Assembly: GCA_031414595.1 (NCBI GenBank)
Contig: JANNVX010000034.1
Span: forward strand, 1-21,122
Reading direction: 5' to 3'
DNA: 21,122 nt
DNA from: Deinococcales bacterium
Lineage (GTDB): Bacteria; Deinococcota; Deinococci; Deinococcales; JAAFIG01
Both the position numbers and the translations under genes were made by a program. This document shows, one piece after another, positions 5,730 through 16,308 of the stretch (position 1 is its first letter; each line of letters begins with the position of its first letter). Below the pieces are notes generated by a model. That model did not search any database. It was given only the letters and a program-made list of their open reading frames with translations, and was not told the DNA's origin.

Positions 5730-8700
5730 TTATTCGCGCACTGTTAAAGTAGCGGCACTCGAGCGTCCGCGAATTTCGGGGTCATACATCAGTTCGGCGC
5801 TGCTCGGTAAGTGGGTATATGTTCCGGCAGTCTGGGCGCGTAGCACAACCCTAAACTGATTACGGTCCTCGAGACTCTGGGCAAACATTTCCACACGGTC
5901 AGCATAAATGTCTCTGGCGGCGTACCAATTATCCCAGTCGGAAGCAGTGCCAAATGACGTTTTGGGGTTTTTGATGCCGAGCAAGTTAATGGTGTCCATT
6001 GGTACAGCTTGGAATCCGGCTGGCACAGGCTCGATAATTTGGGCATGGCGCATACTGCCGCTTTCTGGGTTAATTTCGAGATTGACCAGAATCAAATCTC
6101 CGACCTTAATCGCTTGGGCAACACCATTTTGAATCAGTGGTTTGGGGCTGTACTCCCAAGCCTGGGCTGCTTCGCTCCAAGTTTTCTCAAGGCGTTCATA
6201 GGTGCGCTTGACTTGAATGCCATTATTTTCGTTGTCCAAACGTGAGGGTTCGCGGGTGTACTCGAGACGAACGCCATAGGTCAGGTCGCCGACTATTTCT
6301 AAGGTGTTTTCGCCGTTACTCAAGGCTGGCTCGAGGTCAAGGCTTATTCCTGCGGCAGTGACGGTTGGTTCAGCAATGGTTTTGCCGTTTAAGCGCACCT
6401 TAACTTGTTGGCTCGAGGTGCTGGGTTTGGGCAAGGTTAAGGCAGCACTGATAATCGCGCTGGTGTCGGCGGTACTGACCCACCAATCGCCGCGTCTGGC
6501 TTGCAGTAAATAGTTGATTGCTTTAGAAATCAGGGGGCTTTTAGACTCGAGTAAACTCAAGGCTTCTAAGGCAGTGGCGGTCACAAGAATCGGGTTATCA
6601 TCCCAATAATAATTCCAGCGATACGGGTTTTTGGGGCGCTGCCACTGCACTGTGCTGTCGCGCTCGATTCGGGTAGCTTTTAAGCGCTCGAGCAGATTCT
6701 TAGCTTGTTCAGGGCGGCTCAGGCTGTGGTATGCCAAGGCTAATTGCGCCAAGTGGTACGGCTCAAGGTCTGGGACGGCGGCAAAAATTTGCATCGTCTC
6801 CAAGTCTGGGGATTGGGCTTCGGCTAGAGCGCGGTGGGCTAGGGCGCGTGAACCGCGTGAAAAACTGGTGTTTTTGAGGTTATCGCGCAGCCATTTAATG
6901 CCGCCATCAAGCAAAAAAGCATAGCGTTCTCGAGGAATTTTTTGTTTTTGTAATCGGGCTAAAGAAAGCACCACACTGGCAGTCATGTCCATGGCGCTTT
7001 GGTCATGACTCCAAAATCCCCAACCTCCATCGCTATGACGCAGGGTCTCCAAGCGAGCTAGTCCAGCCTCGAGTAAATCTGGCAGGTCGTCTCGAGGGGC
7101 GATTTCGGCGGCAAGCATGGCGGGGATAAAGCGGGCTAGGGTTTGTTCGGTACAGCCATATGGATAGGCAATCAGGCGTTCCAAGGCGGGTTGTACGGCA
7201 CTGAGTAAACTTGGGGTCAGGCTGATATGAAGTTGTGCGCTCTCGAGTCGAGCATCTTCGGGAAGAATAAAGGTTTTTTGCTTGTTGCCAGTATCCCCAG
7301 CCCATGTTTGGGTGGCGCTAAAACCCCTTGGTTTAACGGCTAGAGGCAACTCGAGGGCATCCGAACCGAGTAGCGAAGTGTACGCGCCTTGGATTTTGGC
7401 TTGTCCTAAGTTGGTGGCGGTAATTTGCGTCTCAAAACTGGCTCGAGTATTGGCTGGGATTTCCAAACGCCCTTCAAGCGCACGGCTGCTGCTGAGTCCA
7501 AGTAAATTAAATGTAAAGACTCCGTTTGCATTTTGCGCTAAGTTGTTATTGACAATGCCACGCAAGGTGGTACTGTCACCACGCACCAAAAATTCGGGTT
7601 TGGCAATTCGCGCTAGAATATCTTTGGTGACGAGCGTTTGGGCTTTACTTTCCCCTGCCGCACCATTTAGGGTTTGCCCTCTTGCGGTGATTCGCCAGGT
7701 TGTCAGGTTGTCGGGGTACAGCACTGGTACCTTGGCAATTCCATTGGCATCGGTGATGACACTGCCAAGCCACAAGGCGGTGTCCCTAAAATCTTTGCGG
7801 ACTCGTCCAGTATCATTGTCGGCTCGAGTTGCACGGGTGTCACCTTCGCCATCTCCTCCACCGCCAAGTTCGCCATCCATGTCTTCACTCGAGACAGTGC
7901 CGATTAAATTGGGGCGGTCTCCATGAAAAATATCAAACGGATTGGGTGTACCATCTTCACGTAGTAAATAGATGCCTTCGTCCACCACTGCCAGACTTAA
8001 TTCGGTCTGCACAGGTTGTTTGGCGGCGTTGCTGACTTTAAGCTCGAGTTGACCAGTTTCTGACGGGGCATAACGTGTTTTACTGGGCAGAATTTCTAGG
8101 GTGAGGCGCTGGTCATCTTTAGGAACACTGACATTTGCACCTCCGCCGTATTGTGTGCCATAAGGTATTCCCAAATGCAGATAGGAAATTTGCAAATAGA
8201 CATTGGGCTGCATCGCACTTGTGACCTTAAACGAATAGACAAAGGTCGAGCGGGTAGTACGGATTAAGCGGGTCTGCAAAACACTGTCCGCCTCGAGCGA
8301 GACCCAAGCATCCACCCTAACAGGTACGCCCATAATCAATGCCGTGACCGTTTCACCGACCTGATACGAAGTTTTATTCAAACGCACTTGGGCATAATCC
8401 ACATTCCAGCCCCAGTTTTCGTTTTGTGCCAACTGCCATGCAAAGGTCTCGGCTTTGGATAAACGCCCCGCCGCATCCTTGGTTCTGGCTCGCACCACAT
8501 ACCCACCGCCAAGGCTAGGCTTAAAGACCACTCGAGCCGTGCCACTGCGGGTTTGAACGGTGCGTTTCTCGAGCGGCGTTTCTTTCAGGGTCCAAGTGGT
8601 TTGGCGCTGACCGTCCTTTAGCACAGAACCTTGGATGTACTCTTGGCGAAACAATTGCAACTCGACACTGCTGTTCGCAATTGCGCCTTGCAAATTCCTC

Positions 8701-10139
8701 GTCCGCACATCTAATTCAAAAGGTTCGCCTGCATTAAATAAGTAACGTGTGGTTCGCGAAGAGACCCGCACCGAACTTGGATAGGCATAAATATCCACAT
8801 AGCGCTCGAGTAAATTCCGAGATTCATCTTCAATTTGTACAAAGACGGTGTAACGCACAGGGAAAGCAAATGTATTAACTTCAAATGGCAACTCGAGTTT
8901 TAATTTTCCGTTTGCATCGAGGGCGGTCACTTGTTCAAAGATGATTTTATTGTCGTATGCACCGTACTCTTCCGAATACGCAAAGCCAAAATCCTTATAA
9001 TTGGGGTCATCTTTGGTAAAACTTGAAGCCCTCGAGAAGGTTACTTTAACCCGCCCGTTGCTCATGCCCCCACCAAAAAGATAATTTGCACTGACCTCGA
9101 GTGGTGAACGTGTGCCTTGCAGCACCACCAAGGGTGTTTTTAGGGTCATGTCAAAGTCTGGCTTAACGTATTCCTGTACAGCAAAATCGGCTAAGCTGCG
9201 CGAGTCATCTAAGCCCTCAAAAGTACAGGCGGCTTGCCCTTCGGGGTTGATATGAATTCTGTAATTGTACGATGAGACTCGAGCCGAAGGGCGGAGTAAA
9301 AAACGCCCAGCAAACGTACCGTAAGCGTTGGTCTCGAGCGTTAGCTGGCTTAGTTCTTGTTCACCAAAACACAAGGCAGCACTGATTGGGCGCTTGACCA
9401 AAGGTACAAGGGTTTTATCGAATCGAAAATTCCCACGAAACTCTATTGAATCACCCGGACGGTACATGGTGCGGTCTGTTTGCCCCGTAAAGACATATTT
9501 TTGCGCCAAGCCATACGCCCACGACGAATTGACGACCGCAAAATTCTGCCCCGTTTGCGCCACCACAATCACTTCTTTTTCTGGCACGGGCAAGAGCAAT
9601 AAACCATTTGCATTGGTTGCCAGTTCACGCATGGTTTTAGCTTGCACCAGCCAAATTTTGGCACTACGTTTCTGCCCAGAGATTCGGTTTAAGGTTAAAA
9701 TTCGTAAATCCTGCGGTGATTGCTTGGTGATTATTCCTAAATCTGAAACCAGCACCACACTCGAGCCTCGCTTTGCACCAAACCGAGCTTCTACTTGGTA
9801 CAAACCAGCCGACAAACGCCCAAGCGTGACTTCAGTATCGCCTTCACCTAAGGTTTTATTAACTCGAGACACTTCGGTACGCTTTGCACCATTTGGAATG
9901 GTCGGAGACTGCCACGAGACCAACCAACCGTTTCGCAAAATCTCGAGCGGATTAGAAAAACGCGAAATGATAAAATTGATTTGCACCGAGGTCTTTGCCC
10001 CGTGGTAAATGTCTAAAGTCACAATTTGGTCTGGCGAAAACGTTCCTCTTGAACCAACTGAGAGTTCATTGTCCTGAGCCGAAACAAAAGCCCAACCTAA
10101 GAGCAGCACCGCCAGCCACCAAAAACGAATTCGAGTCAT
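5730..10139 (-). CDS. Bacterial alpha-2-macroglobulin family protein
   Basis: 1469 aa with signal peptide. TDRTMYRPGD (MG2), LAVVDEG, VRKDFRDTALW, PDNLTTWRITA, thioester motif YPYGCTEQ, DGGWGFW, C-terminal AELMYDP. Confidence 0.96.
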   Translation of the reverse strand: MTRIRFWWLAVLLLGWAFVSAQDNELSVGSRGTFSPDQIVTLDIYHGAKTSVQINFIISRFSNPLEILRNGWLVSWQSPTIPNGAKRTEVSRVNKTLGEGDTEVTLGRLSAGLYQVEARFGAKRGSSVVLVSDLGIITKQSPQDLRILTLNRISGQKRSAKIWLVQAKTMRELATNANGLLLLPVPEKEVIVVAQTGQNFAVVNSSWAYGLAQKYVFTGQTDRTMYRPGDSIEFRGNFRFDKTLVPLVKRPISAALCFGEQELSQLTLETNAYGTFAGRFLLRPSARVSSYNYRIHINPEGQAACTFEGLDDSRSLADFAVQEYVKPDFDMTLKTPLVVLQGTRSPLEVSANYLFGGGMSNGRVKVTFSRASSFTKDDPNYKDFGFAYSEEYGAYDNKIIFEQVTALDANGKLKLELPFEVNTFAFPVRYTVFVQIEDESRNLLERYVDIYAYPSSVRVSSRTTRYLFNAGEPFELDVRTRNLQGAIANSSVELQLFRQEYIQGSVLKDGQRQTTWTLKETPLEKRTVQTRSGTARVVFKPSLGGGYVVRARTKDAAGRLSKAETFAWQLAQNENWGWNVDYAQVRLNKTSYQVGETVTALIMGVPVRVDAWVSLEADSVLQTRLIRTTRSTFVYSFKVTSAMQPNVYLQISYLHLGIPYGTQYGGGANVSVPKDDQRLTLEILPSKTRYAPSETGQLELKVSNAAKQPVQTELSLAVVDEGIYLLREDGTPNPFDIFHGDRPNLIGTVSSEDMDGELGGGGDGEGDTRATRADNDTGRVRKDFRDTALWLGSVITDANGIAKVPVLYPDNLTTWRITARGQTLNGAAGESKAQTLVTKDILARIAKPEFLVRGDSTTLRGIVNNNLAQNANGVFTFNLLGLSSSRALEGRLEIPANTRASFETQITATNLGQAKIQGAYTSLLGSDALELPLAVKPRGFSATQTWAGDTGNKQKTFILPEDARLESAQLHISLTPSLLSAVQPALERLIAYPYGCTEQTLARFIPAMLAAEIAPRDDLPDLLEAGLARLETLRHSDGGWGFWSHDQSAMDMTASVVLSLARLQKQKIPRERYAFLLDGGIKWLRDNLKNTSFSRGSRALAHRALAEAQSPDLETMQIFAAVPDLEPYHLAQLALAYHSLSRPEQAKNLLERLKATRIERDSTVQWQRPKNPYRWNYYWDDNPILVTATALEALSLLESKSPLISKAINYLLQARRGDWWVSTADTSAIISAALTLPKPSTSSQQVKVRLNGKTIAEPTVTAAGISLDLEPALSNGENTLEIVGDLTYGVRLEYTREPSRLDNENNGIQVKRTYERLEKTWSEAAQAWEYSPKPLIQNGVAQAIKVGDLILVNLEINPESGSMRHAQIIEPVPAGFQAVPMDTINLLGIKNPKTSFGTASDWDNWYAARDIYADRVEMFAQSLEDRNQFRVVLRAQTAGTYTHLPSSAELMYDPEIRGRSSAATLTVRE

Positions 10140-11399: not shown

Positions 11400-12323
11400 A
11401 TGATTAGCCTCGCCGCCAATGACTCAAGCGCTCTTCGTAGTTTGTTACGCAAAATCAATCCACCACTGGATTATGTCAAAGTTGCACTCGAGCGCGAGAT
11501 GGACACACAACTGATTAGCGCCCGAAATCTGCGCCCGGTGCTGCTGCATGGTTGTGGCGACTATTGGCGAATTGGAATGCCAGAACTCCCCAATTTTGAG
11601 CGATTAAAGAACTGGATTGCCACCAGCAACACTCCGTATTTATCGGTTCACTTGGATTTACAACCCGAAGATATGCCAAACCTGACACCCGGGGCGGCTT
11701 TAGAGCAAATTGCCACCAACATAGAAATTTTGCACCAAGAAACTGGCTTAGAAGTCGCCCTCGAGAATGTGGCACACTATGCTTGGTCAGAACGCCCGAG
11801 TTTTATTTCTGACCCAGCTTGGATAACTGCCGCCATCGAAATCACCGAAGCGCCGTTTTTACTCGATATTGCCCATGCCAGAGTCAGTGCTGCCCACCGA
11901 GGCGAAAACGCCGAAAAGTACATGGATGCCCTGCCGCTCGAATCAATTCTCGAGATTCACACCAGCGCCCCGCGTATGGAAACTGAAGGGCTGCGTGACC
12001 GCCACTTATCCATGCAGCAGTGCGAATTTGATTGGCTTGAATGGGTCTTGGCTCGAGCCACCAAGACCAAAACCATCACCCTCGAGTACGCTGGAATCCC
12101 AGACATTGGTCACACCCGCGAAGGCAAAGAAATCCGTATCCCACGCAATGACTCTGGCTTACTGCTCGAGAATCTTGCCAAACTGGATTTGTTGCGTAAG
12201 CGTCTGGCTGGAAAACTCCGAGAAGCCCCGCGCTTGCCACAAGGCTGGCATTTGGATCAACGCCGCACCCCGAAACGTGAAGAGGAGCTGAGTTTAAGCA
12301 GCATCCGCGCCATGGGGTATTAG
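11400..12323 (+). CDS. DUF692 / multinuclear non-heme iron-dependent oxidative enzyme (MNIO)-like TIM-barrel protein
   Basis: Ordered motifs LHG, LSVHL, ALENV, FLLDIAHARVSA, LPLESILEIHTS, DRH and ITLEY match the DUF692 metal-ligand pattern. There is an extra ~40-aa C-terminal tail. Confidence 0.8.
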   Translation: MISLAANDSSALRSLLRKINPPLDYVKVALEREMDTQLISARNLRPVLLHGCGDYWRIGMPELPNFERLKNWIATSNTPYLSVHLDLQPEDMPNLTPGAALEQIATNIEILHQETGLEVALENVAHYAWSERPSFISDPAWITAAIEITEAPFLLDIAHARVSAAHRGENAEKYMDALPLESILEIHTSAPRMETEGLRDRHLSMQQCEFDWLEWVLARATKTKTITLEYAGIPDIGHTREGKEIRIPRNDSGLLLENLAKLDLLRKRLAGKLREAPRLPQGWHLDQRRTPKREEELSLSSIRAMGY

Positions 12324-12352: not shown

Positions 12353-12380
12353 TCATCCAATTTGTCCTTGAGTTGCGTAT
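12353..12380 (+). promoter_or_regulatory. Putative ECF-type (autoregulatory) promoter TCATCC-N17-CGTA
   Basis: TCATCC (12353-12358) and CGTA (12376-12379) resemble (T/C)(G/C)ATCC...CGTA/CGAA promoters of SigK-/RpoE-like ECFs and lie just upstream of the ECF gene. Confidence 0.45.
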
Positions 12381-12430
12381 ACCTTTTGATGATGTTCTCT
12401 TTTCGAGCTTTTACACCGTATACTTGGCAA

Positions 12431-13036
12431 ATGGCTAATCTGCCTCCAGATACCGATTCCAGTACAAGTACAGATGAGTTCTTATTGGCACAAGTGGCAC
12501 TTGGCAGCGAAGCAGCTTTGACAACGCTTTATCAGCGTTTCTCGAGACGGGTTCATTCTTTGGCGCGGCGGATTTTGGGCAGTCAATCAGAAGCCGACGA
12601 CATCACCCAAGAGGTTTTTGTAAAACTCTGGGAAAAAGCGAACGTTTTTTTTGAACAACGCGGCAGTGCGGCTGCATGGCTGATGACAATTGCCCATCAT
12701 GCCAGCATAGATGCACTTCGCCGTCGTAATGCTCGGCGCATAGACACAGCAGAAGAAGATTTAGGGCGGTTTTTTCTCGAGCCAAATCACGACCCGCTTG
12801 AACAAGCGATGTTGTCTCGGGCTTTAACGGTACTGAGCAGTGGTGAGCGTGAACTGATTGAATTGGCATTCTTTGCGGGTTTTAGTCATTCCCAAATTGC
12901 CAAAAAAACCGAGTTGCCTTTGGGAACAATTAAATCGCGTTTGCGTTTAGGACTCGAGAAATTAGCCAAAGCACTTGGCGCAAGCGAAGCCAATTTACTG
13001 CAAGCCCAGACTGACTCAAAGATGGTGGAATCATGA
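12431..13036 (+). CDS. ECF sigma-70 factor, SigK-like
   Basis: DE.LL..VA.G...AL..LY.RF, ADDITQEVFVKLW, F...RGSAAAWLMTIAH...ID.LRR, LAFFAGFSHSQIA....LPLGTIKSRLRLGL.KL. Start at 12431 from TATACT-N6-ATG; an alternative in-frame ATG is at 12389. Confidence 0.93.
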   Translation: MANLPPDTDSSTSTDEFLLAQVALGSEAALTTLYQRFSRRVHSLARRILGSQSEADDITQEVFVKLWEKANVFFEQRGSAAAWLMTIAHHASIDALRRRNARRIDTAEEDLGRFFLEPNHDPLEQAMLSRALTVLSSGERELIELAFFAGFSHSQIAKKTELPLGTIKSRLRLGLEKLAKALGASEANLLQAQTDSKMVES

Positions 13037-13896
13037 TTGCGCCTTTGCCATTAAACGAAGCCGCCAGACTCGAGGCATTGTATCGGTACAGCATTTTAGA
13101 CACACCACCTGAAAATATTTTCGATGCCTTAGCTGCCGAAGTTGCGGCTGCCTTAGATGCGCCGATTGCGGTGATTGGTTTTATAGACCAAACACGACAT
13201 TGGTTCAAAGCAAAATTTGGTACTCAAGTCACCGTCAACACGAGGGACTGGGCAACTTGCGCTCATACGATTTACCAAGCTGCGCCTTTGGTTACACCAG
13301 ACGTTCGGCTCGAGCCACGTTTTGCCAACATGCCACCACTTGGGCAAGCAGGGATTCTGGCATACGCTGGAGCGCCTATTCTCAATACTGATGGCTGTGC
13401 GATTGGGACAGTCTGTGTTTTTGACCAAAAAACCCGTCCTTTTACGGCTTTACAAATCCAGCAGCTCGAGCAGTTTGCGGCTCAGGTGCTGCAAATGCTG
13501 GAAACTCGTGTGCGCCTTGAAGAATCGGCGGGTATTGAAATCGTTTCGCAATTTGTACCGTCAAGTCAGCCCAACGCAGGACTCGAGAACAAAATCCTTG
13601 AACGGGTTCGGCAACAAGTTCAGGCGGCTGAGGCTCGACTTGAACGCCTTGGTTCGGGGCAAATGCGGCTGCATGTGGATACTGTTAAACCCGAAACCAT
13701 GCACTGGCAAGTCTGGAGTATGAATCCGTTTGAGGCTGCCCCTCGTCCGATACAAAGTTTTGAATCTGTCAGTACCGACTTTTTTGTTCCAGAACAAACC
13801 CGTGTGGTGATGGTTTCACTCGAGCCAATCGGAGCAACACCAGTGTATCCAACCAAGGTGATGTCAGTTTTAGCCCTCGAGTTGCAGCATAATTAA
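13033..13896 (+). CDS. GAF domain fused to an RskA-like (anti-sigma-K) C-terminal region; putative soluble anti-sigma factor
   Basis: ATGA-coupled to the ECF. aa 1-160 GAF (EAARLEALYRYSILDTPPE..FD; WFKA; CAHTI; YAGAPI....G..IGTVCVFD..PR-like). Then 'PSSQPNAGLENKILERV' and 'WQVW....AAPRPI...VMVSLEPIGATPVYPTKV'. No hydrophobic TM stretch. Confidence 0.72.
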   Translation: MIAPLPLNEAARLEALYRYSILDTPPENIFDALAAEVAAALDAPIAVIGFIDQTRHWFKAKFGTQVTVNTRDWATCAHTIYQAAPLVTPDVRLEPRFANMPPLGQAGILAYAGAPILNTDGCAIGTVCVFDQKTRPFTALQIQQLEQFAAQVLQMLETRVRLEESAGIEIVSQFVPSSQPNAGLENKILERVRQQVQAAEARLERLGSGQMRLHVDTVKPETMHWQVWSMNPFEAAPRPIQSFESVSTDFFVPEQTRVVMVSLEPIGATPVYPTKVMSVLALELQHN

Positions 13897-14058: not shown

Positions 14059-14087
14059 TTGACAAGCACAATTGGACACTCTAAACT
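14059..14087 (+). promoter_or_regulatory. Sigma70 promoter of the TA operon (leaderless)
   Basis: TTGACA (14059-14064) - 17 nt - TAAACT (14082-14087) - 6 nt - GTG 14094. The spacer contains CAATTG. Confidence 0.8.
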
Positions 14088-14093
14088 ACCCTT

Positions 14094-14516
14094 GTGTTTC
14101 GTATCGCCTACCCTTACGACCCAGATGAACTCGAGGCAAAACACCCACCTTTTGTTCAAGATTTAATTGCCATGCACGAAGCAAATCAACTTCAAGCCCT
14201 GATGGAAATTAGCAAAATGATTGCTGCCCTAAAACAGCTCGGACTCAAATCTGGTTTTACCAAGAAAATGTTTGATTCCCCGCTTTACGAATTAAAAACC
14301 CATTCTCGAGGTGGACAAAAAGGTGGCGCTCGAGCGTACTTATTTCGTAGCAATGATAATTTCTTAATTTGTCGTGCCGAGTGTAAAGTCAGTAACCAAC
14401 CAGACCCAGAATTACTCGAATCAGCCGCTTATATTTTGCTTGCCTTTAAGACAGGACGACCGGTATTTCCAGCATGGATGAAAAACCCAATTCAAATTCT
14501 TGGAGATAACTTATGA
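14094..14516 (+). CDS. RelE/HigB-like (Gp49-type) type II toxin
   Basis: 'L...G......KKM..SPLYELK......GARAYLF......ICRA..K' RelE-like pattern. Immediately upstream of and overlapping an HTH gene. Confidence 0.68.
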   Translation: MFRIAYPYDPDELEAKHPPFVQDLIAMHEANQLQALMEISKMIAALKQLGLKSGFTKKMFDSPLYELKTHSRGGQKGGARAYLFRSNDNFLICRAECKVSNQPDPELLESAAYILLAFKTGRPVFPAWMKNPIQILGDNL

Positions 14517-14893
14517 AAAACCTTGAAGCCAGAAAAGCTGCCCTAGCCACAGTCCTTGCAATGCGTGAAGATAACATCATTCCGGATGTGCCAACCTTTA
14601 TCCCAGAAGCGAATCCTGATATTTTACTCGAGACAGTCCAACAGGCATATATTGCCCATAAAATCGGTGATTTACTCGAGATGGCACGAAAACAACGCAA
14701 AATTGGTAAACGCCAACTTGCTAGAGCTTTAGAAACCAGTCATGGAAGAATCACAGCCTTAGAGAACGCTGTTAATCTCGAATTAAAAAGTATTACGGCT
14801 GTAGCCAGCGAACTTGGTTTTGACGTGCAAGTTAATTTAATACCTCGAGATGGTGGAACAAGTTTAGGTGCAATGTTGCATAGTGGTCATTAA
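14513..14893 (+). CDS. XRE-HTH antitoxin (HigA-like)
   Basis: 'IGDLLEMARKQRKIGKRQLARALETSHGRITALENAVNLELKSITAVASELGFDVQVNL'. ATGA overlap with the toxin; SD GGAG. Confidence 0.8.
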   Translation: MKNLEARKAALATVLAMREDNIIPDVPTFIPEANPDILLETVQQAYIAHKIGDLLEMARKQRKIGKRQLARALETSHGRITALENAVNLELKSITAVASELGFDVQVNLIPRDGGTSLGAMLHSGH

Positions 14894-15091: not shown

Positions 15092-15418
15092 TTAAAGATT
15101 ATTTTGTTTAGAAATTCGTAATTGATTTGATCGTTCTGCGCTTAGGTCTAAATCATTCCGAACAAACTCTTGAGGAACATTCCTATAGGTAATACTAAGT
15201 TTTTTTCCACACCAAGGACAAAACTGAATACTACTCTCTTCGGCAAATACAACACGTACATCTTCATTGAATGTAAGAAATTCGCCATCGTCAACAATTC
15301 TAAATTGCATGAAAAATTCTGATTCTGAATTCTCAGATTTTTTGATACATAAACTTAAACCGCGTAAGCCAGCAAACTCAAAGCGAAACTTAAATTTTTG
15401 ACAACACCAATTCATCAT
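15092..15418 (-). CDS. Small Cys-rich hypothetical protein (WCC...IQFCPWCG), possibly DUF6980-like
   Basis: SD AGAGG upstream; CC near the N-terminus and CPWCG zinc-ribbon-like motif; AT-rich relative to neighbours. Confidence 0.65.
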   Translation of the reverse strand: MMNWCCQKFKFRFEFAGLRGLSLCIKKSENSESEFFMQFRIVDDGEFLTFNEDVRVVFAEESSIQFCPWCGKKLSITYRNVPQEFVRNDLDLSAERSNQLRISKQNNL

Positions 15419-15460: not shown

Positions 15461-16243
15461 TTAACGCAACATAACTGAATTTGCCTGTAACACTGCATCT
15501 GGTTCAAGGTCTCGGCGCAGCACCGCCAAAGCAGTAAAGGTATCTTGGTCGGCAATAACTGCACCAACTTGTCCAACTTCACGTGAGCCAAGCAGCACTT
15601 TTGTACCTCGAGCCACGGCTTTATCCAAAAGCACTTGGCGCAGTTCGTACCGTGGGTTGCCCCGCGCCTCGAGCCGCGCCATGATTTCCTGTCCGATATA
15701 ACAGCCTTTTTTATAAGAAACAGCACGCTCTAAACCACATTCTTGCGGTAGTAACCCCAAAAAAGCATCCAAATGGGCATGGGCTAATCCAGCTTTGACT
15801 CGAGCCAATTCTGGATTCTCGAGTGGTGTAGCATCGAATTCTGGAATTTCTGAGGCGGCAAAAAGCACATCTAAACCAAGTCCAAAACCACGATTGGCTG
15901 TCCAGTGCAGAGCGCCCGTCTCGAGTTCGCCGACAACGTGCAGCAAAGTCCAATTGGCTGTAACGACACTGATTTGCACATCATCAAAAATAATATAGCG
16001 CTTAAACCGTTCAAATAAGGCTGTCTCGAGTCCGGCTTGACAAAGCACCAACAAATCGTCTGCTCGGCGCAGCACTTTTATATCAAATTCAATTTGTCCT
16101 TTGGCATTTAAGACCAAAGCTCGGCAAGCAGCACCTATGGCTAAGCCACGCACATCATTGCTGCATTGACCCTGCAAAAAAGGAATTCTATCCGAACCCA
16201 TTAAACAAAGCACGCCCGTCTCGAGTTTTACAAAAGACTTCAT
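15461..16243 (-). CDS. ygfZ: YgfZ/GcvT-like folate-binding protein
   Basis: G.DR..FLQGQCSND, LNAKGQI, signature KGCYIGQE..AR. ATG 16243 preceded by TAAACT-N7. Confidence 0.92.
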   Translation of the reverse strand: MKSFVKLETGVLCLMGSDRIPFLQGQCSNDVRGLAIGAACRALVLNAKGQIEFDIKVLRRADDLLVLCQAGLETALFERFKRYIIFDDVQISVVTANWTLLHVVGELETGALHWTANRGFGLGLDVLFAASEIPEFDATPLENPELARVKAGLAHAHLDAFLGLLPQECGLERAVSYKKGCYIGQEIMARLEARGNPRYELRQVLLDKAVARGTKVLLGSREVGQVGAVIADQDTFTALAVLRRDLEPDAVLQANSVMLR

Positions 16244-16308
16244 ATTCCCGAGTTTAACCCTAGACAATTTGGCTGTCTGTCCTCTGGGATTCTTGATAGG
16301 CTAGATGG

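Follow-up and report, generated by a model that had tools for sequence, protein, structure and literature searches.

The window analysed here is the whole stretch of 21,122 nucleotides from a Deinococcales contig, and the genes of interest lie on its plus strand. An ECF sigma factor gene (12431..13036), encoding 201 amino acids from the ATG at 12431, is followed by a gene for a soluble protein of 287 amino acids (13033..13896). This second protein is a fusion in which a GAF domain, a putative remnant of an anti-sigma helix and a domain resembling the C-terminal part of RskA follow each other. Directly upstream of the sigma gene lies a gene of the DUF692/MbnB-TglH-ChrH family (11400..12323, plus strand; Pfam PF05114, 1e-14). 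It is a conserved neighbour within the genus, being found upstream at L050, L052 and L055, the last of which carries two tandem copies.

The sigma gene is part of an open frame running from 12362 to 13036, within which the ATG at 12431 lies. Its product belongs to the ECF sigma factors (sigma-70 group 4), as judged by matches to the Pfam families Sigma70_r2 (1.7e-20), r4_2 (4.5e-11) and Sigma70_ECF (8e-7) and by TIGR02937, which scores 90.9 bits against a cut-off of 42.9. The first-pass annotation had called it a SigK-like ECF factor; the ECF assignment stands, and the likeness to SigK is a loose one. Among the NCBIfam models, PRK13919 (Thermus-type sigE) ranks first (4.8e-41, 141 bits, below its cut-off) and the SigK model PRK09646 second (4.8e-38, 130.7 bits against a cut-off of 226), which places the protein outside strict SigK/ECF19 membership. 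Among solved structures, R. sphaeroides RpoE (2q1z_A, 8.9e-32) comes narrowly before SigK (4nqw_A, 5.4e-29). In addition, the sequence contains no cysteine, so the redox pair of SigK is missing. Such a pair is located in sigma-4 in ECF18 and forms the disulphide of SigK, according to the accessible text of PMC7826278.

Translation of the sigma factor may begin 42 nt further upstream, at the ATG at 12389, which would be read as a leaderless start and would give a protein of 215 amino acids. The in-frame N-terminal extension that this implies is kept in orthologues, even across a 3-nt indel. Just upstream lies an ECF-type promoter motif, CATCCAA-N16-CGTATAC (12354..12382, plus strand), both blocks of which are invariant across five orthologous upstream regions. 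In the same genome the motif is also found directly upstream of a paralogous sigma gene (contig C88), of a Ferritin_2 gene with a signal-like N-terminal leader (C102) and of a DUF4397 gene whose N-terminus is signal-like (C51). Genome-wide, the pattern has nine matches against four for a reversed-pattern control, which is a weak enrichment. The sigma factor probably regulates its own gene through this motif. A scan for a terminator or an internal promoter within the sigma-fusion operon gave background values, and both were rejected.

The start codon of the fusion gene overlaps the stop codon of the sigma gene in the sequence ATGA, as had been pointed out at the outset and can be read directly from the DNA. 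The overlap is ATGA in all 11 loci of the 'MIAP' type and TGATG in two relatives, L057 and L063. Sigma/anti-sigma stoichiometry is usually marked by tight translational coupling of this kind. The AlphaFold2 model of the fusion protein has confident domains and a mean pLDDT of 85.4.

The first 160 residues (13033..13512) form a GAF domain. Pfam GAF (PF01590) matches residues 26-152 with 2.1e-17 and 64.4 bits, against a cut-off of 22.4. The closest solved relative is the GAF domain of the diguanylate cyclase Dcsbis, both by sequence (4zmu_A, E 5.4e-35) and by fold, where 4zmu is the top Foldseek match (E 9.2e-14). Among GAF-only homologues, many are joined to GGDEF, histidine-kinase or cyclase domains, which agrees with the initial description of the domain as one of the cyclase and kinase type. 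The domain of the fusion family shares 32 core positions, C76 and C128 among them, with 61 GAF-only homologues, and seven positions are specific to the family; judged by this alignment, the domain retains the core residues of a sensor subfamily that is in wide use. Dcsbis itself (PA2771 of P. aeruginosa, GAF-GGDEF, PDB 4ZMU) shares with it the GAF subfamily, the helix motif at the N-terminus and the two conserved cysteines. The two proteins differ in their output, which is a GGDEF enzyme in Dcsbis and an anti-sigma remnant in the fusion. In the accessible text of PMC4937426, Dcsbis's GAF domain is described as binding neither cAMP nor cGMP. A GAF domain of the free-methionine-sulfoxide-reductase type was considered and rejected, no such match being found in the PDB at E<=1.

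The C-terminal domain (aa 201-282, 13633..13878) resembles the beta-sandwich domain RskA_C, which is normally extracytoplasmic; in the fusion it would be cytoplasmic. How clearly this likeness is seen depends on the method. When the profile of the domain is compared by hhalign with that of 19 canonical RskA-like proteins, the probabilities over residues 202-282 are 98.3% (E 2.5e-14) and 98.9% (E 3.7e-17), and BLASTP links the domain to the canonical RskA of the same genome at E 1e-6. The RskA likeness originally proposed for this region is well founded at the profile level and weak by models applied to the single sequence. Pfam RskA_C (PF10099) gives no match to the fusion protein of the window at E<=1 and does not reach its gathering score, and it is likewise missing for the fusion from the family scan of the whole genome. 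The same model matches 13 of 22 members of the fusion family, with a best E of 3.8e-4. The NCBIfam model PRK13920, 'putative anti-sigmaE protein', matches residues 206-277 with 2.2e-5, a score that falls far short of the model's cut-off.

When 1.84 billion representatives were searched with a profile of the C-terminal domain, 19 matches came back: seven GAF fusions, 11 canonical RskA-like proteins (two of them fragments) and one repeat protein. The predicted domain has seven strands at a pLDDT of about 90. Foldseek against the PDB returned nothing at E<=1e-3, its rows being FN3/Ig-like, and the wide VIA structure search gave a generic FN3-like best match (Z 8.7). No solved RskA_C structure surfaced in either search, and the ESM Atlas gave no usable match for residues 165-287. 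A 'GGS' motif that is invariant in canonical RskA_C is degenerate in the fusion.

Canonical RskA proteins contain a single transmembrane helix, and a scan of 19-residue Kyte-Doolittle windows finds none in the fusion, as the first reading of the sequence had held. The highest window (1.89) lies inside the first helices of the GAF domain and includes E and D. After residue 160 the maximum is 1.03, compared with 1.57-2.63 at the transmembrane segment of canonical RskA-like proteins of relatives (n=21). Longer relatives, of 320 amino acids, were considered as possible carriers of a hidden helix. This was rejected: their best linker windows, at 1.38-1.58, contain D/E or polar residues.

Between the two domains lies a linker (aa 169-196, 13537..13620) that holds the conserved helix LENKILERVRQ (aa 183-193, nt 13579-13611). 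The segment 'PSSQPNAGLENKILERV', which the first-pass annotation had singled out, aligns with the canonical anti-sigma domain at its end, with an hhalign probability of 94.1% (E 1.3e-7). Controls stay far lower: 0.1% for the reversed alignment, 0.1% for the transmembrane-plus-spacer region and at most 0.4% for 20 column shuffles. The canonical segment matched by the linker also aligns to the anti-sigma domains of ChrR and RskA in the PDB. At the level of sequence homology, the helix is a counterpart of helix 4 of the class-I anti-sigma domain. It forms an island of conservation in a linker of variable length, with a mean conservation of 0.59 compared with 0.31 and 0.38 in the flanking linker and 0.49 in the C-terminal domain; the core (I/L)LER(V/I)R reaches 0.64-0.86. 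AlphaFold2 places a helix at residues 182-193, in surroundings of low pLDDT.

Helices 1-3 of the anti-sigma domain, the bundle that binds sigma-4, are absent from the fusion, where residues 1-160 are GAF. In the comparison with the 19 canonical proteins, the fusion aligns solely over residues 202-282 and, separately, over residues 169-196. As the gene that follows the sigma factor, it offers a homologue of RskA_C and a putative helix-4 remnant, and has neither a whole anti-sigma domain nor a transmembrane helix. In every solved class-I complex known to us, helices 1-3 hold sigma-4. Because they are absent here, the affinity for sigma may be low or the role of the protein may be different. Class-I helix 4 itself binds regions 2.1/2.2 of sigma-2, accounting for 12 of the 14 top coevolving contacts, and its binding is deemed likely to keep sigma from core RNA polymerase, according to the accessible text of PMC7406223.

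The source is a draft, metagenome-type assembly in 120 contigs, which leaves room for the idea that the fusion arose as a chimera during assembly or through a recent deletion by which two broken genes were joined. Evidence against this can be found in relatives. The GAF-fusion architecture occurs with intact frames in 15 other uncultured Deinococcales genomes, at identities down to 25-35%, and the sigma gene lies immediately upstream in 14 of the 15 (those with a visible upstream region). Full-length homologues of the fusion are present in 52 of the best 120 listed protein clusters. The locus is also tiled by contigs of another study, which span both junctions, and the AlphaFold2 model shows confident domains. 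Since the sigma-fusion pair is conserved across this uncultured family, as the initial reading had suggested looking for, the chimera is refuted and can be regarded as extremely improbable.

In a tree of C-terminal domains, 24 fusion sequences are split from 26 canonical ones by one branch (SH-aLRT 98), and a single origin of the fusion domains is not contradicted. The sigma factors of the family form one clade (97/97) whose members have the fusion, RskA or both as coupled partners. Monophyly of the fusion-coupled sigma factors is neither rejected nor demonstrated (p-AU 0.12). One genome, G002 (82% complete), has the fusion without an adjacent sigma gene, and the sigma factor found there is the RskA-coupled paralogue alone.

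Membrane-bound RskA has not disappeared from these organisms. In the genome of the window, a canonical RskA with a transmembrane helix is located on contig C88 beside the paralogous sigma gene, whose product is 50% identical, and in L057 and L063 a canonical RskA, the sigma factor and the fusion are found together at one locus. The locus had been interpreted as a cytoplasmic switch in place of a membrane cascade. The exchange of the N-terminal helices for a GAF domain and the loss of the transmembrane helix agree with the first half of this. The switch is not a simple replacement of the membrane pathway, since canonical RskA coexists with it, in two relatives at the same locus.

These features suggest a model in which the operon encodes an ECF sigma factor together with a translationally coupled, soluble regulator of the cytoplasm derived from a membrane anti-sigma of the RskA type. 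The regulator would have lost anti-sigma helices 1-3, the transmembrane helix and the extracytoplasmic spacer, would have gained an N-terminal GAF domain of the Dcsbis type, and would have kept helix 4 and the RskA_C beta-sandwich. It would sequester sigma by placing helix 4 on regions 2.1/2.2 of sigma-2, which would block access to core RNA polymerase, and RskA_C or GAF may supply extra sigma contacts in place of helices 1-3. A cytoplasmic signal sensed in the GAF pocket would be passed through the long alpha-5 helix of the domain to the linker, so that sigma is released reversibly and without proteolysis. The freed sigma factor would read CATCCAA-N16-CGTAT promoters, its own included. Membrane RskA, whose gene lies elsewhere in this genome and in some relatives at the locus itself, would feed a second signal, an extracytoplasmic one, into this sigma family.

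That the fusion is a soluble, reversible, GAF-gated putative anti-sigma which holds sigma through the retained helix is given roughly even chances. Several points speak against it: the absence of helices 1-3, the G002 fusion that lacks an adjacent sigma, the weak enrichment of the promoter motif, the sub-threshold Pfam RskA_C score, the normally extracytoplasmic place of RskA_C, and the finding that the nearest solved GAF domain binds neither cAMP nor cGMP. A bolder version is put forward tentatively. Here the protein would be a minimal anti-sigma working with helix 4 alone, in which GAF replaces both the sigma-4-binding bundle and the membrane anchor, the gating of sigma is reversible and responds to a metabolite or redox state inside the cell and not to proteolysis, and RskA_C, once extracytoplasmic, takes on a cytoplasmic role as a second module for sigma binding or dimerisation. 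With membrane RskA alongside, one sigma family would receive two independent inputs, from outside and inside the cell.

Alternately, the fusion may be a mere co-transcribed member of the regulon, with a GAF sensor and a beta-sandwich output acting on some other target, and with the helix and RskA_C as ancestral leftovers that play no part in sigma binding. ECF operons often carry regulon genes, the C-terminal domain is a generic FN3/Ig-like sandwich with a degenerate 'GGS' motif, and one orphan copy has no sigma neighbour. However, conservation is higher in the helix-4 remnant than in the C-terminal domain while the linker around the remnant varies in length and sequence, which argues for a maintained function of the sigma-binding element, and the overlap of start and stop is kept across about 25-35% identity. 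With these points on its two sides, the regulon reading seems rather unlikely. Another proposal would make the fusion a sigma-linked regulator other than a simple inhibitor, such as a co-factor, an adaptor or something like an anti-anti-sigma, acting on the same sigma in concert with membrane RskA, for instance by stabilising it or by capturing it and handing it over after proteolysis of RskA. The three-gene loci of L057 and L063, the separate pair of RskA and second sigma factor under the same promoter motif in the genome of the window, the G002 fusion found alongside an RskA-coupled sigma alone, and the absence of the sigma-4-binding helices all fit such a role. Yet the sole sigma-contacting element that has been kept is the inhibitory helix 4, the coupling to the sigma gene is of the tight kind typical of sigma/anti-sigma stoichiometry, and no other partner is indicated. 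An adaptor role is considered unlikely.

The putative anti-sigma can be compared with several known systems. M. tuberculosis SigK-RskA (ECF19, PDB 4NQW) has a closely related sigma factor; its RskA is released by regulated proteolysis and possesses helices 1-3, a transmembrane helix and an extracytoplasmic location, none of which is found in the fusion, and it has no counterpart of the N-terminal GAF domain. The RskA-like anti-sigmas of Deinococcales, including the copy on contig C88, differ from the fusion in the same respects, and RskA_C and the helix-4 motif are what the fusion has in common with both. In Thermus thermophilus, SigE and its anti-sigma, which we take to be a membrane protein, correspond to the best NCBIfam models for the two proteins of the operon, at scores far below the curated cut-offs; the match to PRK13920 covers model positions 139-207 of 213. 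R. sphaeroides RpoE-ChrR (ECF11, PDB 2Q1Z) offers the best solved relative of the sigma factor and a soluble anti-sigma whose anti-sigma domain is joined to a cytoplasmic sensor domain. ChrR differs in having a full, zinc-binding domain of four helices and a C-terminal cupin-like sensor, whereas the fusion has an N-terminal GAF and helix 4 alone. The promoter motif given in PMC5507510, TGATCC-N16-CGTA, is similar to CATCCAA-N16-CGTAT, and in the accessible text of that paper GAF appears solely as a regulon gene.

The order of sigma gene and putative partner is the position reported for ECF19 anti-sigmas in the accessible parts of PMC7826278. The cysteine pair that the same paper describes for SigK is missing from the sigma factor of the window. 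Soluble partners without a transmembrane helix and with alternative domains are described in the same clade by Casas-Pastor et al. 2021 (PMC7826278): s19 is ChrR-like, and s7/s18 combine a zinc finger with an MDMPI N-terminal domain. The variants described in the accessible text have neither GAF nor RskA_C. The term 'GAF' is absent from the main text of that paper and occurs once, in an unrelated context, in its supplement, as counted up to the later groups. The first-pass annotation did not recognise the architecture as a described ECF mechanism, and no description of a GAF or soluble RskA-type anti-sigma was found in the searchable ECF literature, including that on the RskA C-terminal domain (PF10099) and on Deinococcus ECF factors. 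The putative regulator may thus represent a new and conserved way in which an ECF sigma switch is wired.

No other kind of alternative-sigma switch is as abundant as the pair of ECF sigma and anti-sigma factor, and such pairs serve as orthogonal parts in synthetic circuits. The anti-sigmas known so far are for the most part membrane proteins, which proteolysis removes irreversibly. If the fusion is indeed a soluble derivative of such a protein, the retention of helix 4 alone would reveal how small a part of the anti-sigma domain suffices for control. Being soluble and expressible without a membrane, it would offer a first handle on the role of RskA_C. It would also link the very widespread, ligand-orphan GAF domains of the Dcsbis type to a transcriptional read-out that can be used for signal screening. 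Finally, it would trace an evolutionary path within one bacterial family, in which a domain swap and the loss of a transmembrane helix turned a switch that senses the outside of the cell into one that senses the inside.

The gene coupled to the ECF sigma factor encodes a conserved fusion protein, each part of which has recognizable homologues. By ORF scan, both genes lie on the forward strand. The sigma gene runs from an ATG at 12431 to a stop at 13036, in a frame open from 12362. The fusion gene (287 aa) occupies 13033-13896, its ATG overlapping the sigma stop as ATGA.

Residues 1-160 of the fusion form a GAF domain (Pfam 2.1e-17). As the first-pass annotation had proposed, it is of the type carried by diguanylate cyclases and kinases; cyclases also appear among the homologues listed for its subfamily. 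The nearest structure is the GAF domain of Dcsbis/PA2771 (sequence E 5.4e-35, fold E 9.2e-14), which has a large hydrophobic pocket. The fusion family shares 32 core positions with 61 GAF-only homologues, including both invariant cysteines (C76 and C128), and only 7 positions are family-specific. Thus, the sensor looks ordinary for its subfamily, a typical Dcsbis-type GAF.

At the other end, residues 201-281 are confidently modelled as a seven-strand beta-sandwich; a model built from the C-terminal part by itself (pLDDT 83.5) confirms this. The fold is a generic FN3/Ig-like sandwich, and structure searches with the model surfaced no solved RskA_C structure. Single-model searches detect the domain only faintly. 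Pfam RskA_C does not match the window's fusion at E<=1 and matches 13 of the 22 members of its family, at E 3.8e-4 at best; the NCBIfam 'putative anti-sigmaE' model PRK13920 matches residues 206-277 at 2.2e-5. Because this signal is faint, 19 canonical RskA-like proteins were gathered from related genomes, each combining an N-terminal anti-sigma domain and a transmembrane (TM) segment with an RskA_C domain that passes the Pfam cut-off. Profile-profile comparisons with these reach 98.3% (E 2.5e-14) and 98.9% (E 3.7e-17) over residues 202-282, and the BLASTP match to the canonical RskA of this genome has E 1e-6, bearing out the proposed RskA similarity. Against 1.84 billion representative proteins, the C-terminal profile has 19 matches at E<=1e-3: 7 GAF fusions, 11 canonical RskA-like proteins (2 of them fragments) and 1 unrelated repeat protein. 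Elsewhere in the genome, a 293-aa lipoprotein-like ORF (L015, 958-1839, on contig C106) ends in a stretch that weakly resembles RskA_C (PF10099 E 0.004, under the cut-off).

Between the two domains, the AlphaFold2 model (pLDDT 85.4) extends the last GAF helix to about residue 174, followed by a low-confidence linker with a short helix inside it at residues 182-193. The segment PSSQPNAGLENKILERV, picked out in the first-pass annotation, is a helix-4 remnant that aligns with the last part of canonical anti-sigma domains (profile-profile 94.1%, E 1.3e-7); the three controls, namely the alignment reversed, its columns shuffled 20 times and the TM-plus-spacer region, all stayed at or below 0.4%. 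The whole canonical profile matches the anti-sigma domains of ChrR and RskA in the PDB, and the ChrR alignment takes in the helix-4 segment. Within the fusion family the helix is an island of conservation, with a mean top-residue fraction of 0.59 versus 0.31 and 0.38 in the flanking linker and 0.49 in the C-domain; the linker around it differs in length between subfamilies. A hydropathy scan finds no TM helix, as first described: the top window (1.89) is charged and lies inside the GAF domain, and the maximum past residue 160 is 1.03, versus 1.57-2.63 at the TM segment of canonical RskA-like proteins.

Of the 120 best protein clusters listed, 52 cover 93% or more of the query. The fusion is present in 7/7 genomes of the same genus (55-94% identity); two other genera of the family have it too, with longer linkers and a length of 300-320 aa. 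Other families of the order Deinococcales have GAF-only matches or none. In a collection of species-representative genomes, full-length matches occur only in Deinococcales or Deinococcota MAG records, the rest being GAF-only. The locus is also tiled by contigs of another study, which span both junctions. The architecture is therefore not unique to this assembly, contrary to the case that would have undone the proposal, and an artefact is exceedingly improbable. Where the upstream region can be seen, 14 of 15 other genomes have a sigma gene immediately before the fusion. The start and stop overlap as ATGA in 11/11 'MIAP'-type loci and as TGATG in two relatives' loci, L057 and L063. The exception, G002 (82% complete), has an orphan 269-aa form (L056, 2477-3310) with no adjoining sigma and a divergent alpha/beta-hydrolase-like gene upstream; the only sigma found there is the RskA-coupled paralogue.

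The sigma factor best matches the Thermus-type 'sigma E' model PRK13919 (4.8e-41) and the SigK model PRK09646 (4.8e-38), each under its curated cut-off. Among solved structures it is closest to R. sphaeroides RpoE (2q1z_A, 8.9e-32), followed by M. tuberculosis SigK (4nqw_A, 5.4e-29). It contains no cysteine, and so has no counterpart of the cysteine pair reported in ECF18/19 and SigK (PMC7826278).

A promoter motif, CATCCAA-N16-CGTATAC, lies at 12354-12382 on the forward strand and is kept upstream of sigma in orthologues. An ATG at 12389, 7 nt past the CGTATAC -10-like element, opens an in-frame extension (12389-12430, MMFSFRAFTPYTWQ-MANLPP...) whose frame is kept in orthologues, even across a 3-nt indel in L052. 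Together these suggest a longer, leaderless form starting at 12389; leaderless mRNAs are common in Deinococcus. A further CGTATAC copy lies 8 nt 5' of ATG 12431. The motif also directly precedes three more genes of the genome: the paralogous sigma and, as CATCCAA-N16-CGTAT, a Ferritin_2 gene whose product starts with a signal-like leader (L137, 1538-2149, on contig C102) and a DUF4397 gene whose product also has a signal-like N-terminus (L134, 735-1454, on contig C51). The last two are candidate regulon members common to both sigma paralogues. Genome-wide the motif is barely enriched (9 matches versus 4 for a control pattern), so the regulon is only a lead.

Directly upstream of sigma is a DUF692 (MbnB/TglH/ChrH family) gene (11400-12323), conserved in the genus; L055 has two tandem copies. 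Farther off, 5730-10139 on the reverse strand encodes a bacterial alpha-2-macroglobulin of 1469 aa that comprises MG, bait-region, TED and bMG10 domains. Downstream of the fusion, a sigma-70-like promoter (14059-14087) precedes two overlapping forward-strand ORFs (14094-14893; 140 aa, no Pfam match, and 126 aa, weak HTH_19/HTH_3). With a 108-aa reverse-strand ORF (15092-15418), they make up a small module, present only in this genome, that looks like a toxin-antitoxin-like insertion. The YgfZ/GcvT-like gene, here at 15461-16267, directly follows the fusion in the relatives L050, L051, L052 and L054.

The genome also has a canonical RskA on contig C88 (253 aa, TM helix, PF10099 1.2e-11), divergent from a sigma 50% identical to the window's. 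In this paralogous locus (L017, 710-2558), a 158-aa single-TM protein without a Pfam match comes after the sigma; a cytochrome P460 gene lies past RskA. In a 40-row tree the family's sigmas, whether coupled to fusion, RskA or both, form one clade (97/97) whose interior branching lacks resolution, and one clade for the sigmas coupled to the fusion is compatible with the topology test (p-AU 0.12). In the C-domain tree, a single branch (SH-aLRT 98) splits 24 fusion from 26 canonical domains. The simplest history would be one origin within this bacterial family, in which a copy of RskA was stripped of helices 1-3, of the TM helix and of the spacer, and acquired a GAF domain; the sigma would have duplicated later in some genera.

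Full-text literature searches turned up no anti-sigma of GAF type and none of RskA type that lacks a TM helix. Soluble anti-sigmas are reported in 10 groups of the ECF reclassification, with ChrR-like and zinc-finger/MDMPI variants within ECF19 (PMC7826278). In that paper, 'GAF' is absent from the main text and occurs once, in an unrelated sense, in the part of the supplement that deals with the earlier groups.

In class-I anti-sigmas, helices 1-3 bind sigma-4 and helix 4, with 12 of the 14 top coevolving contacts, binds sigma-2 regions 2.1/2.2, which its authors consider likely to bar sigma from core RNA polymerase (PMC7406223). Without the bundle that binds sigma-4, the fusion departs seriously from all solved class-I complexes, which counts against sequestration. 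The fusion could instead be a mere passenger of the regulon, which is unlikely. It is more doubtful that it acts with RskA as a non-inhibitory co-regulator; in L057 and L063 a divergent RskA, the sigma and the fusion do stand in one locus. We infer, at about even confidence, that the fusion sequesters sigma. It would hold the sigma by the helix-4 remnant, perhaps aided by the C-domain or GAF, and a cytoplasmic signal at the GAF domain would then free it, reversibly.
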